Shown: in pieces, positions 1,538 to 51,094 of the stretch
Numbering within the stretch: position 1 is the first letter of the stretch
How the letters are laid out: every line of letters starts with the position of its first letter
Source of the DNA: Candidatus Moraniibacteriota bacterium
GTDB lineage: Bacteria > Patescibacteriota > Minisyncoccia > Moranbacterales > UBA1568
Direction: 5' to 3'
NCBI GenBank assembly: GCA_963743885.1
Contig: CAVURJ010000001.1
Coordinates: 204,949 to 268,948 of the forward strand
Length of the DNA stretch: 64,000 bases
Notes under the pieces: generated by a model
The model's database searches: none
Seen by the model: the letters and a program-made list of their open reading frames with translations, nothing else
What the model was told of the DNA's origin: nothing
Program-made: the position numbers and the translations under genes

Positions 1538-3781
1538 ATGAAATTCTGGGAACAAGGCCTCAATCCTGAGCAGTTGCGCGCGGTCCTCCAAACGGAAGGA
1601 CCGGTGCTTATCCTGGCCGGTGCCGGATCTGGCAAGACCAAGACACTGACGCACCGTATCGCCTACCTCATCGAGGAGAAGCAGGTGTCGCCGCAGCATA
1701 TCCTTGCGGTCACCTTTACCAATAAGGCGGCGCAGGAGATGCGCGAGCGTATCGAGAAGCTCCTGTCGCAGAGCGATGCGGCCGAGTATGGCGCCGTGGC
1801 GCTGCCACAGCATATCGGGACATTCCACAATATCTGCTGCCGCATCCTCCGGAGGGAGATTGAGGTTTTGGGGTATGGCAAGAGCTTCAATATCGTCGAT
1901 AGCCAGGATCAGGAGTCACTCGTCAAGAAGTCGATGCGTGAGCTCGAGATCGATCCGGATCAGGTGAAGCCGCGTGCTATCCTCGATGCCATCTCGCGCG
2001 CTAAGAACGCCTTCAAGAGCGAAGAGCAGTTCATGCTCGAAGCCGGCAGCTACTTTGAGGAGATCATCGCCAAGGTCTACGCGGCGTACCAGAAGGCGCT
2101 TCGTGCGGGCAATAGCTTGGACTTCGATGACCTCATCATGCTCACGGTCCGGCTCTTCCAGGAGCATCCGGAGGTGCTCGCGCGCTACCAGGAGACCTTT
2201 CGCTACGTCATGGTCGACGAGTATCAGGACACCAACTACCCGCAGTACCTCCTGGTGACGCTCCTCGCCGGCAAACACAAGAATCTCTTCGTCATCGGCG
2301 ACGACTACCAGTCGATCTATGGCTGGCGCCAGGCGGACATCCGCAACATCCTTAACTTCGAGAAGGACTACCCGGAAGCGGCGGTCATCACGCTTGATCA
2401 GAACTATCGCTCGACGCAGATTATCCTCGATGCGGCACATGGTGTCATTGAGCGCAACAAGAACCAGCGACACAAGAAGCTCTGGACGGAGATGAAGGGC
2501 GGCGAGCCGATCGCGCTCGTACCGGCCGAAGACGAGGAAGCAGAGGCGCGCTTCGTGGCGGAGACGATAGCCCGCGAACGGAAAGCCGGCAAGGGCTACA
2601 GCGACTTCGCTGTGCTCTACCGCACCAACGCTCAGTCCCGCATGATCGAAGAGATGTTCCTCCGCCATTCAGTGGAGTACCGTATCGTGGGCGGACTGAA
2701 GTTCTATCAGCGCAAGGAAGTGAAGGACATGGTCGCCTATGTGCGGCTCCTCGAGAACCCGCGCGACATGCTCGCGCTCGAGCGCATCATCAATGAGCCC
2801 AAGCGGGGCCTGGGCGACGCGACACTCGCACGTTGGACCAGTTTTGCTCGGACGAATGACCTGGATTTCTTTGACGCTGCATACAAGATGACGCCTGAGA
2901 CGAGCGACCTGCGCGAGGGCAAGATCAAGGCGATCCGCGAGTTCGCGGACATCTTTCTCAAGCTCCGCCTGGAGATGGGGGAGTATCCTGATCTCAAGCT
3001 GCCCGAGCTGCTCGACAAGATCGGCCGCGCGAGCGGCTATGTCGCGAGTCTCGATGACGGCACGGCAGAGGGCGAAGCGCGAGAGGAAAACGTGCGCGAA
3101 TTGCTTACCGTTGCCAAAAAGCACGACGACCTTCCGCTTGCTGAGGCACTCCATCTTTTCCTCGAGGAAGTGGCGCTCTCATCCGATACGGACGAGATCA
3201 GCCGCAATACCGATGCGGTGCATGTCATGACACTCCACAGCGCCAAGGGCCTCGAGTTTCCAATTGTCTTCATCCTCGGTCTCGAAGAGGGTATCTTCCC
3301 GCATTCGCGCGCGCAGCTTTCTCCGGCCGAGCTCGAAGAAGAACGCCGCCTCATGTATGTCGGTTTGACCCGTGCCAAAGAGCGCGTCTATCTCCTCTTC
3401 ACTGAGAGCCGCACTATTTATGGTTCGACGCAGGTCAACCCGCCGTCGCGCTTTATCGCGGAGATACCAGATCATCTCGTTGACGAGCAGGACCGTGTGA
3501 GCTCCGGTATGATGGGTAAGAAATATTTCCAGCGGTCGTTCCAGCGCTATCCGTCCGCGCCGAAGAAGAAGCTCACCGCTCCGGTAGCGAAATCCGAAGG
3601 TGCCGAGCCGCAGGGCACGCCGATCCAGCCGGGCGAGGTCCGGCCGGGGGATATGGTAGAGCATCCGCAGTTCGGCTCGGGTCTCATCGTCTCGATCGCG
3701 GGCACGCTCGCGACCATCGCCTTCAAGCGTTCTGGCGTGAAGAAGATGATGCTTGGCGTCGCACCACTTACGAAAGTATAA
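1538..3781 (+). CDS. pcrA: ATP-dependent DNA helicase PcrA/UvrD (superfamily 1)
   Basis: Walker A LAGAGSGKTKTLTHRIAYLI, VMVDEYQDTNYPQY, and a UvrD C-terminal tail. Start is taken at MKFWEQGLNPEQLRAV by analogy with the PcrA N-terminus; the ORF is open from 1418. Confidence 0.9.
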   Translation: MKFWEQGLNPEQLRAVLQTEGPVLILAGAGSGKTKTLTHRIAYLIEEKQVSPQHILAVTFTNKAAQEMRERIEKLLSQSDAAEYGAVALPQHIGTFHNICCRILRREIEVLGYGKSFNIVDSQDQESLVKKSMRELEIDPDQVKPRAILDAISRAKNAFKSEEQFMLEAGSYFEEIIAKVYAAYQKALRAGNSLDFDDLIMLTVRLFQEHPEVLARYQETFRYVMVDEYQDTNYPQYLLVTLLAGKHKNLFVIGDDYQSIYGWRQADIRNILNFEKDYPEAAVITLDQNYRSTQIILDAAHGVIERNKNQRHKKLWTEMKGGEPIALVPAEDEEAEARFVAETIARERKAGKGYSDFAVLYRTNAQSRMIEEMFLRHSVEYRIVGGLKFYQRKEVKDMVAYVRLLENPRDMLALERIINEPKRGLGDATLARWTSFARTNDLDFFDAAYKMTPETSDLREGKIKAIREFADIFLKLRLEMGEYPDLKLPELLDKIGRASGYVASLDDGTAEGEAREENVRELLTVAKKHDDLPLAEALHLFLEEVALSSDTDEISRNTDAVHVMTLHSAKGLEFPIVFILGLEEGIFPHSRAQLSPAELEEERRLMYVGLTRAKERVYLLFTESRTIYGSTQVNPPSRFIAEIPDHLVDEQDRVSSGMMGKKYFQRSFQRYPSAPKKKLTAPVAKSEGAEPQGTPIQPGEVRPGDMVEHPQFGSGLIVSIAGTLATIAFKRSGVKKMMLGVAPLTKV

Positions 3782-3858
3782 TAATCCGAACAAGTCTTAA
3801 AAAAGAGCTTTAATTAGAGCCCTTTTTTCTTTTAAACGACAGGAGAATAAGTAAAGTA

Positions 3859-3935
3859 TAGGTATAATTCAAGTATAATTAGACTGGTATTGACATAATG
3901 AGTCAAAATTAGGTATAATTCAAGTATAATTATAC
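3859..3935 (+). promoter_or_regulatory. promoter region with two 22-bp direct repeats (ggtataattcaagtataatta), each carrying two TATAAT boxes, plus TTGACA at about 3889
   Basis: Direct repeats at 3859-3881 and 3910-3932, in the AT-rich DNA upstream of the Fic gene. Confidence 0.4.
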
Positions 3936-3938
3936 TTA

Positions 3939-4029
3939 TTACCAAACGAAGTGAGTGAAACGAAAGTTAACTTTCGTTTCCGAGCGCAGTGCGGGTAAAA
4001 TCGGTAAATAACCGTTATTTTATAAATCG
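3939..4029 (+). repeat. structured two-hairpin element, copy 1 of 3 (TTACCAA..GTGAGYGAAA-stem-TTTCCGAGCGNAGYGC..GTAAAA-stem2); candidate small RNA or MITE
   Basis: Shared primary sequence with 32301-32460 and 46577-46665. Stem 1 is gaaacgaaag/ctttcgtttc and stem 2 is cggt/accg; both stems show compensatory changes across the copies. Confidence 0.55.
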
Positions 4030-4030
4030 T

Positions 4031-5386
4031 ATGCTTTTCAACTTAAAAAAGCCATCCGTGGCGCAAATGGATAATAGTCAAATGCTGGATCTTCTTTCTG
4101 AGAGGAGTTCGGAAATTTTTGATTTTGTAAAAAAGGTTTCTAACGCTGAGTATTTATATTGGGATAATTTTCGCCATAAGGAACCATCGCCAAAAAACAT
4201 TTCTAAAGAATCACTGTGGATGCTTACGAAATTCATCAGAAAGGCACAATCTATCAAAACACCTATTAAGGATAAGGGCGGCAGTGTTTTTACTTGGTCG
4301 AAGCTGCAGTATTTCGAGCAGTTTTTCCATGAGCTTGATATGAATACCGGCGGAGGATTATTTGTTGAAAGCTCGGAAGTAAATAAAGCCAATAAGCAGA
4401 AGCTTATTTCCAGGGGGATAATGGAAGAGGCTATCGCCTCTTCCCAATTGGAGGGAGCTGCTACAAGCCGGCAAGCAGCCAAGAAAATGCTACGTGAGGG
4501 AAGAAAGCCGAAAAATCGATCCGAACAGATGATCGTGAATTCGTATCTTTCCATGAAATCGATTGAGGAAAATTATAAGGATAGAAAAATGACGGTAGAT
4601 TTGCTATTGGAGATGCATAGCATGATTACGTCGGATACTCTTGATTTAGAAGGAGAAAGGCCAAGGTTAAGAGGAAAAAAAGATCCAATCGTTGTGTCGG
4701 ATGATGCGACTGGTATCGTATATCACGAAGGACCGAATATGGCCTTTGTAAAAAATGAGCTTGAACGATTGGTTGAATTCGCGAATGATGAATTGGACAG
4801 CGGAGAGTTTATTCATCCAGTCATCAAGGCTATCATGCTTCACTTTTGGATGGGATATCTCCACCCGTTTACTGATGGCAACGGGCGGTTGGCTCGCCTT
4901 TTGTTTTATTGGTATCTTATGAAAAAAGGATACTGGGCTTTTGCGTATTTGCCGATTTCTAAGGTAATCAAGCGTTCACCAAAGCAATATATTATGGCGT
5001 ATGTGTACAGCGAACAGGATGATAACGATCTCGCATATTTCATAAATTACAATATCCAGAAAATTAAGCTTGCTATGAGAGAGTTTTTGGAATATAGAGA
5101 AAAACAATCAACAATGAATGTCCAGATGCGCAAGATATATGGTGTTCGATATCATTTTAATGATAGGCAGATACATTTGCTCCAGTATCTTTATGGGGAT
5201 GCTGACGGAGAAACGACGTTGTTTTCCCATATGAATGTGAACCAGGTATCAAAGATGACCGCGAGCAATGATTTGAAGAACCTTGTGAAAAAAGGATTTC
5301 TTATCCGTTCTAAGCGAGGAAGAAACGTGTTTTATTCTGGAACAGAGAAGATCGAAGAATTGTTCGAAACAAGAAAGAATGGATGA
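4031..5386 (+). CDS. Fic family protein (putative AMPylase/toxin)
   Basis: Canonical Fic motif HPFTDGNGRLARLL. The gene sits in AT-rich DNA. Start is taken at the ATG after the structured element; the ORF is open from 3989. Confidence 0.85.
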   Translation: MLFNLKKPSVAQMDNSQMLDLLSERSSEIFDFVKKVSNAEYLYWDNFRHKEPSPKNISKESLWMLTKFIRKAQSIKTPIKDKGGSVFTWSKLQYFEQFFHELDMNTGGGLFVESSEVNKANKQKLISRGIMEEAIASSQLEGAATSRQAAKKMLREGRKPKNRSEQMIVNSYLSMKSIEENYKDRKMTVDLLLEMHSMITSDTLDLEGERPRLRGKKDPIVVSDDATGIVYHEGPNMAFVKNELERLVEFANDELDSGEFIHPVIKAIMLHFWMGYLHPFTDGNGRLARLLFYWYLMKKGYWAFAYLPISKVIKRSPKQYIMAYVYSEQDDNDLAYFINYNIQKIKLAMREFLEYREKQSTMNVQMRKIYGVRYHFNDRQIHLLQYLYGDADGETTLFSHMNVNQVSKMTASNDLKNLVKKGFLIRSKRGRNVFYSGTEKIEELFETRKNG

Positions 5387-5418
5387 TGCTTGGCGTCGCA
5401 CCACTTCGGAAGGTCTAG
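5382..5418 (+). repeat. relic duplicate of the last 12 codons of pcrA (MMLGVAPLRKV*), a direct repeat of 3745-3781
   Basis: gatgatgcttggcgtcgcaccactt is identical at 3745-3769 and 5382-5405. The downstream codons are near-identical and carry their own TAG stop. Confidence 0.7.
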
Positions 5419-32275: not shown

Positions 32276-32300
32276 TAGAATTGTAACATACCCTTTTTTA

Positions 32301-32460
32301 TTACTAAACGTAGCGAGCGAAATGAGAGCTTGTTCTCATTTCCGAGCGCAGTGCAAGTAAAAACAGGTGCTCCCCGAGGCTGGCCTCGGAACAGGCAAGC
32401 TTTGCTTGTTTGTGCTGCGGAATCCCCGCAGCTGGACACCTGTTATACACAAAAATAAAG
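32301..32460 (+). repeat. structured two-hairpin element, copy 2 of 3 (longer second hairpin acaggtg...cacctgt)
   Basis: ttactaaacgtagcgagcgaaatgagagcttgttctcatttccgagcgcagtgcaagtaaaa. Stem 1 gaaatgaga/tctcatttc covaries with copies 1 and 3. Confidence 0.55.
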
Positions 32461-32503: not shown

Positions 32504-32532
32504 TTGACGGAAAGGTTGGCCCGCGCTATACT
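32504..32532 (+). promoter_or_regulatory. sigma70-like promoter TTGACG-17-TATACT
   Basis: ttgacggaaaggttggcccgcgctatact. The TTG at 32504 listed as an ORF start is the -35 box. Confidence 0.5.
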
Positions 32533-32824
32533 GACCTTTGTAAAAATTAGGGCAAAGACCCCATGGGTGTTTCCAGGAGCCTGGCTCGCAGGCGGAACTC
32601 CCCAGGGCTTTGACCGATTGAAAGGCGAGAGTCTTATAGACACTCAACCGACATTCTTCCAGAAGATCGCCGCTCGGGTGCGTTCGCGCTTCGTCTGTGC
32701 TGCGGGATCTGAAGAAAAGAGGAGTCTTGCGTGCCGATTGCATGATCTGCACACCCGGATTCACCATATCCAGAGCCAGACCCTCCAGTTCATCAAGGAA
32801 GCTTCTGGATACCGCGTCGTACGC

Positions 32825-46567: not shown

Positions 46568-46576
46568 AGGAGTTTA

Positions 46577-46665
46577 TTACCAAGTGTAGTGAGCGAAACG
46601 AGAACTCGCTCTCGTTTCCGAGCGGAGCGCAGGTAAAATCGGGTTGAATACCCGTTATAAAGTCT
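46577..46665 (+). repeat. structured two-hairpin element, copy 3 of 3
   Basis: ttaccaagtgtagtgagcgaaacgagaactcgctctcgtttccgagcggagcgcaggtaaaatcgggttgaatacccgttataaag. Stem 1 is gaaacgaga/tctcgtttc and stem 2 is cggg/cccg. Confidence 0.55.
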
Positions 46666-48741: not shown

Positions 48742-48778
48742 ATATCACATGATTGACGACCGTCATTTATGTGATATA
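48742..48778. promoter_or_regulatory. near-perfect 18-bp inverted repeat atatcacatgattgacg/ccgtcatttatgtgatat
   Basis: A second, similar inverted repeat sits at 49437-49474. The two flank the PaaX-like regulator gene. Confidence 0.5.
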
Positions 48779-49377
48779 TCTGAAATACGTATTTTGTCGG
48801 CATCGACGCTATCAGCGTTTGGTTTCGAAAAGAAATATTTCTTGAGCTCTTTTTTGTTATCAATATCCTGAATAGTGATAATGCGGACGTAGCGTGAGGC
48901 GTTGTAGAGATCGGTGAGGCAAGCAATCTCTTTTTCACAGGGAAAGGGGAAGATAAGAGCACTCTTCTGGAGTTCGACGAACCCGATTGTTTTGAGATGG
49001 TCGCGCAGGATGTTGCGGAACATGCGCTTCTTCTCTGGAATATCGAAAAGGACCAGTCTCCACAGCCCGTCCCATTTTTTTGGCCGCTTGATCTTTATCG
49101 TGCTGCCGAAAAGGCTGGCGTACTTTGCCCATCGCTTGCCTTGTTCTGTCAGGCGGAGCACGATGGTCCCGTCGGGATGTTGCGTCTCCTTGAGGAGCTT
49201 CTGTTGGCAGAGTGAACGGAGCGAGCGGTTGAGATTCTGTCGGTCGATATATCTCCAGTCTTTCCGGATGCCTTTCAGGATGCGTGGGAAAGCGCCTTGC
49301 GATCCGGAGATGCTGAGGGCTGCTCCGCCGAGGAGGATGAGGAGGATTTTCTGCTGTACCGAACCTATCTTGAGCAT
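48763..49377 (-). CDS. PaaX-like transcriptional regulator (wHTH N-terminus plus WDGxW C-terminal domain)
   Basis: WDGLWRLVLFDIPEKKRMFRNILRDHLKTIGFVELQKSALIFP resembles the PaaX WDGKW region. Confidence 0.45.
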   Translation of the reverse strand: MLKIGSVQQKILLILLGGAALSISGSQGAFPRILKGIRKDWRYIDRQNLNRSLRSLCQQKLLKETQHPDGTIVLRLTEQGKRWAKYASLFGSTIKIKRPKKWDGLWRLVLFDIPEKKRMFRNILRDHLKTIGFVELQKSALIFPFPCEKEIACLTDLYNASRYVRIITIQDIDNKKELKKYFFSKPNADSVDADKIRISDISHK

Positions 49378-49436: not shown

Positions 49437-49474
49437 ATATATCATATGAATGACGGTCGTCAATTATGTGATAT
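49437..49474. promoter_or_regulatory. inverted repeat atatcatatgaatgacgg/cgtcaattatgtgatat upstream of the PaaX-like gene
   Basis: Sister of 48742-48778. Candidate auto-operator. Confidence 0.5.
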
Positions 49475-49482
49475 GTCTGGGA

Positions 49483-49700
49483 AAGATGGGAGGGGGGGGT
49501 AGAGGGAAAATAAGAGAAAAACAGGAAGGAAACAGAGGGAAGAAAGGAGGAAACAGAGGGAAAATGAAAGACGCGGATGGAAGATGAAAGACAGGGAGGA
49601 GAATGCGAGGAGAAAATCGTGGTTTGACAGGGGTATCGGGGGGGGTGGTGATAATAGGGAAAGAGAGCGGAGAAGCACTCCTTTTTCTTTGGTTTTGGTA
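49483..49700 (+). repeat. ~200-nt homopurine (GA-rich) tract with extreme strand asymmetry
   Basis: The plus strand is almost exclusively G/A: gggaaagatgggagggggggg...gaaggaaacagagggaag... Confidence 0.7.
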
Positions 49701-50904: not shown

Positions 50905-50972
50905 TATATGTAGCACATAAACCACGGCCGCCCGCCTTGCCGTCGAGTCAGGTCAATTATGTGATATGTGTA
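50905..50972. repeat. palindromic hairpin element related to 186-245
   Basis: gtagcacataaaccacggccgcccgccttgccgtcgagtcaggtcaattatgtgatatgtg. Confidence 0.5.
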
Positions 50973-51094
50973 GGAATGGACTAGGGAGAAGTTGGAGCTG
51001 ATTTTTCATATGATACCCCTTAGTTTCGCAGACGAAACAGCTCCCCTTGGAAAGGGGAGCTAGAGAAATATACGAGAGACTTTTTATGCGAAGC

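Follow-up and report, generated by a model that had tools for sequence, protein, structure and literature searches.

A dispersed small hairpin repeat of Moranbacteria-type Patescibacteria that may be mobilised as single-stranded DNA

A 64,000-nt stretch of a Candidatus Moraniibacteriota contig (hereafter the window) carries three copies of an element that is best described as a structurally unusual, previously undescribed small hairpin repeat, specific to Moranbacteria-type Patescibacteria. We estimate a probability of about one in two that it represents a family of small non-autonomous mobile repeats mobilised through a single strand in the manner of IS200/IS605 elements; the two parts of this reading differ in strength, as sequence comparison makes it very probable that the element is a dispersed mobile repeat, while the specific single-strand mechanism, proposed by analogy, is tentative and somewhat short of an even chance. 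The element behaves like a small parasitic mobile element and not like a gene-specific regulatory RNA. The initial annotation of the window had proposed a small RNA, a ribozyme-like motif or a MITE (miniature inverted-repeat transposable element). The last of these, broadened to a MITE/REP-like dispersed repeat, comes closest, because the element occurs in multiple copies, near-identical copies are unlinked, positions are shifted between relatives, one copy has entered a coding sequence, another is tandem and orientation is random; no support for a ribozyme emerged, and the element is not a classical MITE. It fits no defined family, being neither a classical MITE, a REP/RAYT element nor a demonstrated palindrome-associated transposable element (PATE).

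Copies, fold and distribution of the element

The limits of the copies were set by comparison. All three lie on the + strand, are immediately preceded by TT and end in GTTAT. Copy 1 is a short form of 81 nt (3938–4018, ATTACC…GTTAT, with TT at 3936–3937), scored by our covariance model R1 at 89.4 bits (E = 6e-22); copy 2 is a long form of 147 nt (32300–32446; 87 bits) and copy 3 a short form of 83 nt (46576–46658; 82 bits). The relationship of the three copies, as first proposed, was confirmed: the middle motif TTTCCGAGCGSAGYGCRRGTAAAA has exactly three exact matches in the window (3977, 32339 and 46615, all on the + strand) and none in 100 shuffled sequences. The 5′ motif GTGAGYGAAA had been thought common to all copies and does not hold for copy 2, which reads GCGAGCGAAA. 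Neither model R1 nor loose regular expressions detected a fourth copy in the window.

The element consists of two parts, a 63-nt irregular hairpin (ATTACC…GGTAAAA) followed by a hairpin of variable size that ends in GTTAT. RNAfold predicted one architecture for the + strands of all three copies (z = −3.5, −6.4 and −3.3 for copies 1–3), and the − strands folded less well. Because DNA folding parameters give the same fold as RNA parameters, these data cannot tell a folded RNA from folded single-stranded DNA. From outside to inside, the first domain comprises a TTACC/GGTAA helix, a 2-bp helix, a 3 × 3 GNA/GNA internal loop, a second 2-bp helix, a tandem G-A loop, a G-C pair with a one-base bulge and the 10-bp ‘stem 1' of the initial annotation; an A-rich linker then leads to ‘stem 2', which encloses 5 loop nucleotides in copies 1 and 3 and, in copy 2, a 70-nt insert with three hairpins. 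Both stems are present and paired in every copy, as originally listed; that two-hairpin description had overlooked the outer helix, the 2-bp helix and the tandem G-A and GNA/GNA loops.

In copy 1 the core occupies 3938–4000, its structure being that given by RNAfold, with pairs counted on 22 and 46 homologues. Its outer helix P1 pairs 3939–3943 with 3995–3999, and the outer 2-bp helix (3946–3947/3990–3991) is followed by the GNA/GNA loop, the inner 2-bp helix (3951–3952/3985–3986), the tandem G-A loop (3953–3954/3983–3984) and the distal stem (3957–3966/3971–3980), which is capped by a TTAA loop. The second hairpin and the end span 4001–4018, with CGGT/ACCG at 4002–4005/4011–4014 and TTAT at 4015–4018; it has an A-tract on its 5′ side and a T-rich run on its 3′ side. 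In copy 2 the core (32300–32362) precedes a second domain (32363–32446) closed by ACAGGTG/CACCTGT, with three small hairpins within, and in copy 3 the core (46576–46638) precedes a CGGGT/ACCCG hairpin and TTAT (46639–46658).

Compensatory changes are visible within the window itself: the outer helix TTACC/GGTAA becomes TTACT/AGTAA in copy 2 (C-G to U-A), and the 2-bp helix changes from A-U (copies 1 and 2) to G-C (copy 3). With about 50 homologues the covariation argument, first made from three copies, became much stronger. Across 22 copies 99.3% of the cells in paired columns can pair, and across 46 copies, in an alignment that was fitted to the model and so leans towards it, 98.4% pair and 13 of 20 pairs show changes on both sides; with the partner column slid by 1–3 positions, only 41–51% pair in the 46 copies. 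The helices of L011, L144 and L072:4317 are wholly different in sequence, yet remain paired. Since G-U combinations far outnumber A-C combinations in the homologue alignment (41 versus 9, P = 6e-6), structural selection acts on the ATTACC strand. The internal-loop purines are 95–100% conserved in those halves that were free of search-pattern constraint, and the helix positions vary.

Homologues were collected by two scans. The first, for exact matches to a pattern in one genome per species, gave 21 true homologues, all from metagenome-assembled genomes (MAGs) assigned either to Candidatus Moranbacteria/Patescibacteria or to ‘uncultured Bdellovibrionales'; two further exact matches, in Helicobacteraceae coding sequence, were discarded as chance. 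A scan of metagenomes, with a pattern restricted to the 5′ half so that conservation of the 3′ half is independent of the search, added about 30 more, for a total of about 50. The family is widespread in Patescibacteria, so the refuting case named in the initial annotation, a lack of homologues elsewhere, does not hold. Family members measure 80–200 nt, with long forms of 135–163 nt, and copy number is considerable: at least 8 in MAG CAYLJX01 (a single MAG of about 0.95 Mb), 3 in the 64-kb window and 6 in MAG MFSB01 (five exact matches and one divergent copy found by the model). The label ‘uncultured Bdellovibrionales' of the element-bearing MAGs (L002, L004, L006, L007, L009, L011, L015, L019, L022, L023 and L153) is probably wrong, judging from sequence, because they carry a Patescibacteria element and one encodes a UvrD 84% identical to that of the window; the best named homologues of the window's UvrD are from Moranbacteria, at 73–76% identity.

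A match to a known RNA family was not obtained. At the gathering threshold, Rfam 15 recognised only three tRNAs in the whole window, and at E ≤ 10 copies 1 and 2 gave either noise (E = 4–6, far below gathering) or nothing. No description of the element was found in Rfam or in the searchable literature on the sequence itself, on repeats of the candidate phyla radiation (CPR) or on CPR structured RNAs. The exact core is also absent from the viral contigs of IMG/VR, three of which hold divergent relatives of it (L162, 6452–6511; L163, 1114–1173; L164, 12293–12353), scored by R1 at about 20 bits (E = 0.006–0.009). These variants keep GYGAGCGAAA-stem-TTTCCGAGCG and an outer helix, their loops differ, and a small hairpin follows.

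Dispersal and ends of the element

The positions of the copies point to a dispersed, mobile repeat. In one MAG, copies on two unlinked contigs (L001 and L014) match at 98% identity exactly across TTT-ATTACC…GTTAT, its other copies being about 79% identical, and copy 3 of the window is 87% identical to a copy at an unrelated locus of relative L152. The syntenic loci L009 and L090 have the element in different spacers; L023 carries it between two divergent genes, and the orthologous spacer of L005 lacks it; the copies of L011 and L017, both upstream of one and the same gene, point in opposite directions. Among syntenic relatives of the window, the closest (L150/L151) retains the order uvrD, xer, LysM/CHAP with no element between xer and LysM, its spacer in L150 holding about 75 nt of unrelated sequence in place of copy 2, with flanks that align on both sides. 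In L090 the element adds 84 nt, in frame, to the stretch that encodes a protein's N-terminal membrane segment, and the L009 orthologue lacks it, while L078 contains two head-to-tail copies that have one TTAT in common (…CCTTTAT|TACCAAACG…).

With respect to neighbouring genes the four possible orientations occur at about equal frequency, so that about one-quarter of the copies are antisense to both neighbours; many copies lie directly after gene ends and many beside gene starts. No protein family recurs next to the copies, no copy occupies a conserved orthologous position among the loci compared, no open reading frame (ORF) is enclosed by the element in about 50 copies, and no promoter-like site was detected inside it or at a fixed distance upstream. 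The suggested link to particular neighbours (a fic leader and xer) therefore appears coincidental, as no neighbour family recurs and a relative has the same xer–LysM arrangement without the element. We considered and rejected a role as cis-regulatory leader of fic or xer on the same grounds: orientation is random, there is no recurring neighbour family and a relative lacks the element in the same spacer.

Next, we examined the ends. Among 42 copies, the left flank has T at −1 in 88%, at −2 in 90% and at −3 in 71%, and is random further out, so that flank and start together read TTAT|TACC in most copies; the right end TTAY is invariant and is followed by mild T-richness over three bases. Terminal inverted repeats are lacking, since neither of the ends, ATTACC… and …CCCGTTAT, repeats the other in inverted form. 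Nor is there a target-site duplication, since the left-flank variants CTAT, TCAT, TGAT and CCAT all occur with an unchanged TTAT at the right end and do not covary with it.

The right end frequently coincides with the end of a gene. The TAA contained in the terminal TTAY is exactly the stop codon of an opposite-strand open frame (60 codons or longer) in 16 of 42 copies, compared with 7 of 84 in two control frames submitted to the same test (Fisher P = 1e-4). About 11 of the 16 frames are credible genes, including ftsZ, HU, mntA and an RluB-like gene, and the stop-sharing gene of L152 was called independently by a database pipeline. Such sharing is expected of an element that has TTAT at its own end and goes in immediately 3′ of a TTAT-like site, and insertion at A-TAA gene ends would be neutral because the stop codon is rebuilt. 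Read antisense, the end presents UAA-C-hairpin-AUUUUAC, a terminator-like arrangement. An intrinsic terminator would have a G+C-rich stem of 5 bp or more with a U-run behind it; in a terminator scan only the second hairpin of copy 3 passed, on the − strand, and copies 1 and 2 did not.

Further arrangements were seen in several loci. In L072 (3978–4795) mntA, the antitoxin gene of a HepT/MntA pair, has a copy on each side: the first separates it from hepT, and the second lies 6 nt upstream of its start, with the mntA stop codon in a terminal TTAT. At several different points, even in the loops of other hairpins, the element has taken up small G+C-rich hairpins, of which CCTGCCTACCGGCAGGCAGG and GCCCGCCTAGCCGGCGAGGCTGGC are examples (copies in L086, L120, L101, L066, L009, L056 and L143), and these genomes seem to harbour another active class of very small inserting hairpins.

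Mechanism, related systems and alternative explanations

The IS200/IS605-like mechanism is suggested by an end logic in common, by hairpins that form on one strand, by the absence of both inverted repeats and duplications and by the presence of relatives active in these genomes. In this proposal, a hairpin-recognising enzyme of the HUH/Y1 type would move the unit in trans as single-stranded DNA (‘peel and paste'). The unit, which extends from (TT)ATTACC to GTTAT and whose 3′ hairpin tolerates nested insertions, would insert just 3′ of a TTAT-like site; its own TTAT end would then restore the right-hand sequence, including the TAA stop codons of convergent genes. Once inserted, it would place stable hairpins in transcripts of either strand, the antisense one reading as stop codon, hairpin and U-run.

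Comparison with IS200/IS605 elements and PATEs, for which we take IS608 as the paradigm, shows that these, like the element, have neither terminal inverted repeats nor target duplications. The element further resembles them in its hairpins near both ends with one strand folding, in its short conserved left sequence (TT/TTAT) and fixed right terminus TTAT, in the tandem copy that shares a junction and in the presence of IS200s with hairpin and TTAT in the same communities. It differs in that the few loci examined gave no autonomous partner with matching ends, in that its left hairpin, instead of being a short near-perfect palindrome, is an irregular 63-nt helix with conserved G/A loops, in that the right hairpin abuts the terminus and in that the replication-strand bias is not significant. 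With REP/REPIN sequences (RAYT/TnpA-REP) it has in common that it is a short multi-copy extragenic hairpin repeat, often at gene ends, for which a Y1-type enzyme is plausible, and that a purine-rich tag, GYGAG, stands just 5′ of the main stem. However, the element is much longer and has two domains (a REP palindrome measures 20–40 nt), it has no constant GTAG/CGTC tag, the tetranucleotide before GYGAG varying (GAAG, GTAG, GGAG, GCAG), no inverted pairs were seen among its copies, and the RAYT-like genes of these genomes are flanked by another hairpin, TTGGAAGCAAGGCTTCCAA. Rickettsia palindromic elements offer a parallel as lineage-specific palindromic repeats of about 100 nt in reduced genomes, one copy of the element being likewise in frame in a gene (L090), but there is no sequence relation and the element is almost always intergenic, with that one coding-sequence case. 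Correia elements of Neisseria, ERIC and the pneumococcal BOX and RUP repeats are similarly dispersed between genes and add hairpins, possibly terminators, to transcripts in either orientation; unlike the element, they have terminal inverted repeats and target duplications (DDE-type mobilisation).

Two groups of candidate enzymes were found. A Y1_Tnp (RAYT-like) gene lies 620 nt from the L001 copy, and an element occurs within 1.5 kb of a RAYT-like gene in only two of four loci. These genes (L001, 1809–2483; L144, 6001–6684; L146, 6001–6702; L148, 2777–3469) belong to a Y1 family of about 225 aa with 3686 homologues in Patescibacteria. Each is flanked on both sides by a REP-type hairpin (TTGGAAGCAAGGCTTCCAA in L001, L144 and L148; the variant TTGGGAGTTGGACTCCCAA in L146) and has two in-frame copies of the hairpin inside its own coding sequence, where the first form encodes FGSKASK. 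The same communities contain true IS200 elements (tnpA of 148–157 aa), and one contig carries both an IS200 and the element. In IS200 loci a terminal hairpin precedes TTAT, TTTAT or TTCAT, and the left flank is rich in T. Minimal IS200 elements lie in L079 (8247–8720, − strand), L154, L156 and L158; they have the hairpin CCGCGG-CTTG-CCGCGG at the left end and, at the right end, CTCGCGG-CTTG-CCGCGAG in L079 and related variants in the other three. The left-end IS200 hairpin CCCCGCGG-CTTG-CCGCGG, preceded by GGGTnnAAThCC, is identical to the first insert hairpin in the second domain of the long forms, which are, from their sequence, most simply read as short forms with a nested IS200-type mini-element. 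As a parent of the repeat IS200 was rejected, since the loci L079 and L154–L160 lack the 63-nt core and have in common with the element only the TTAT end and the nested hairpin.

Several observations weigh against a mobile repeat of IS200/IS605 type. RAYT was rejected as a partner, because its genes are flanked by another hairpin of their own and are not linked to the element in any consistent way; the 63-nt core is missing from all of the few IS200 and RAYT loci examined. Among about 50 copies none proved autonomous, and the hairpins of the IS200s differ from those of the element. An IS200/IS605 mode would favour the G-rich (lagging-template) strand, but the preference seen is weak: the element lies on that strand in 25 of 39 loci (P = 0.11) and in all three copies of the window, across which GC skew is positive. 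At the nucleotide level no clean empty site could be aligned, the relatives being only 70–87% identical; exact-protein look-ups and the nearest relatives (uvrD 82–87% nucleotide identity) yielded presence and absence of the element in spacers too diverged to define a junction. In addition, the near-invariant G/A loops, together with 89% core identity across species, would also fit a protein-bound functional RNA, and the divergent core on three viral contigs suggests that the motif may serve something other than transposition. There is a small chance that the G/A-loop hairpin (GYGAGYG-AAA-stem-UUU-CCGAGCG) is the recognition element of an undescribed system; one possibility is a mobile structured RNA with a dedicated protein, another the substrate of a new CPR enzyme for hairpin-directed transposition or recombination, which could be neither a canonical IS200 TnpA nor a RAYT.

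If the fold were instead kept for an RNA function, the element would be a small RNA gene or a module bound by protein through its tandem G-A and GNA/GNA loops and multiplied in the genome. The pairing asymmetry that favours one strand, the 95–100% conserved loop purines with covarying helices (a classic signature of RNA–protein recognition), a second hairpin followed by UUAUUUU that resembles a terminator and could define a 3′ end, the perfect promoter site 19 nt upstream of copy 1 and the core motif kept in the divergent viral-contig variants all agree with such a role. We nevertheless consider it unlikely, given that promoter-like sites are found neither at a fixed upstream distance nor inside the element, that about a quarter of the copies are antisense to both neighbours, that copies include a coding-sequence insertion as well as tandem and nested arrangements, that none is at a conserved orthologous position and that Rfam has no match; moreover, G-T wobbles and tandem G-A pairs are stable in DNA hairpins too. 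A narrower RNA function, as a self-cleaving ribozyme or a guide-RNA scaffold of the tracrRNA or omega-RNA type, is close to refuted. It draws on loose resemblances of UGAGCGAAAC to part of the hammerhead core and of GUAAAAU-hairpin-GUUAU to the nexus of Cas9 tracrRNA, but no ribozyme, HEARO or other Rfam model matched even at E ≤ 10, there is no space for hammerhead stem II, no cas, iscB or tnpB gene is adjacent, and the element, with its T-rich flanks, has no variable guide-like segment. By-eye comparisons with the K-turn, T-loop, hammerhead, tracrRNA nexus and attC showed that the required geometry was not met in any of them, and TIGR-Tas, which concerns tandem arrays, was set aside as irrelevant.

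Host use of the repeat as a REP-like 3′-end module, supplying a stop codon and a two-way terminator or an mRNA-stabilising hairpin in compact genomes, is compatible with mobility and may explain why copies persist; as the account of the element itself it is improbable. The terminal TTAY that serves as a convergent gene's stop codon in 16 of 42 copies, the antisense UAA-C-hairpin-AUUUUAC flagged by the terminator scan for copy 3, the A-tract before and T-run after the second hairpin and the many copies right after gene ends speak for it. On the other hand, the stem of the second hairpin is only 4–5 bp long in short forms, the terminator scan accepts just one of the three window copies, many copies lie beside gene starts, and the strictly conserved 63-nt core is left unexplained; stop sharing is explained equally well by a preference for TTAT targets combined with selection against disruptive insertions. 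It is far more doubtful still that the element is a site for a tyrosine recombinase, folded as a single strand in the manner of integron attC and marking gene cassettes. Like attC, the element folds on one strand, conserves structure more than helix sequence, varies in length, retains conserved unpaired bases and contains the stop codon of the adjacent ORF in its end; besides, a small ORF and the element are together present in L009 and absent from L090, two copies bracket mntA in L072, and copy 2 adjoins an xer-type recombinase gene. But the ends of the element do not pair with each other as the R″ and R′ boxes do, the 5′ end pairing with an internal GGTAA, no integrase is associated with the copies and no recombinase recurs near them, xer is in place in a relative without the element, copies abut core genes such as ftsZ and HU, and they are dispersed and form no arrays.

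Genomes of Patescibacteria/CPR bacteria measure about 1 Mb and are thought to be poor in repetitive DNA. At about one copy per 20–100 kb, the repeat constitutes a sizeable, unannotated feature of them, which can break assemblies, creates spurious ORFs because two of its three reading frames are open, alters gene ends by supplying a stop codon and a hairpin, and marks variable genome regions. The covariance model can be used to annotate Patescibacteria genomes, and the top-strand hairpin with TTAT offers a clean substrate with which to find the mobilising enzyme in organisms that cannot be cultured. If the core were an RNA–protein module, it would constitute a new CPR-specific class of RNA.

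Window context and other features

Copy 1 sits between a perfect sigma-70-like site, TTGACA-18-TATAAT by consensus match (3890–3919, + strand; 19 nt upstream of the copy), and the fic ATG at 4031, in agreement with its earlier placement in the fic 5′ leader; if this predicted promoter is active, copy 1 would be transcribed in sense within that leader. Copy 2 is indeed next to xer, 24 nt from its start codon, and on the opposite strand, so that the two are divergent and the initial annotation of the copy as directly upstream holds for position and not for sense. Copy 3 stands between tRNA-Leu and tRNA-Pro, as reported, both tRNAs being on the − strand.

Immediately upstream of copy 1 is a tandem-like duplication of 40 nt (3846–3885 and 3897–3936, 85% identical) with TATAAT boxes, which the TTGACA-18-TATAAT site spans. 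Furthermore, a 36-nt direct repeat (89% identical) recurs at 3745–3780, the last 36 nt of uvrD, and at 5382–5417, where it overlaps the fic stop codon. The two repeats bracket a 1.6-kb unit that contains a terminator-like site, the duplicated promoter region, copy 1 and fic, and that resembles a fic cassette integrated at the uvrD 3′ end. Relative to L150/L151 (uvrD 82% nucleotide identity), which runs from uvrD almost directly to xer–LysM/CHAP, the window has about 27 kb extra (~3790–31170), and relative L152 has yet other genes after uvrD; sequence comparison marks what follows uvrD as a variable hotspot.

Upstream of the LysM/CHAP gene (~32504–32700), a leader conserved with L150, despite an overall identity of 70%, lies behind a promoter-like TTGACG-17-TATACT, the conserved blocks of the leader being …TTAGGGCAAA…GATTGAAAGGCGAGAGTCTTAT…ACTCAACC. 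The leader has no Rfam match at gathering score and may be a cis-regulatory RNA of this cell-wall hydrolase gene. Finally, the window holds a second, unrelated family of palindromic repeats (TGTCACATAAAC…GC-rich hairpin…GTTTATATGACA) at 186–248 and 50909–50971, to which a 25-nt repeat at 48762–48786, 49459–49483 and 50952–50976 is related.

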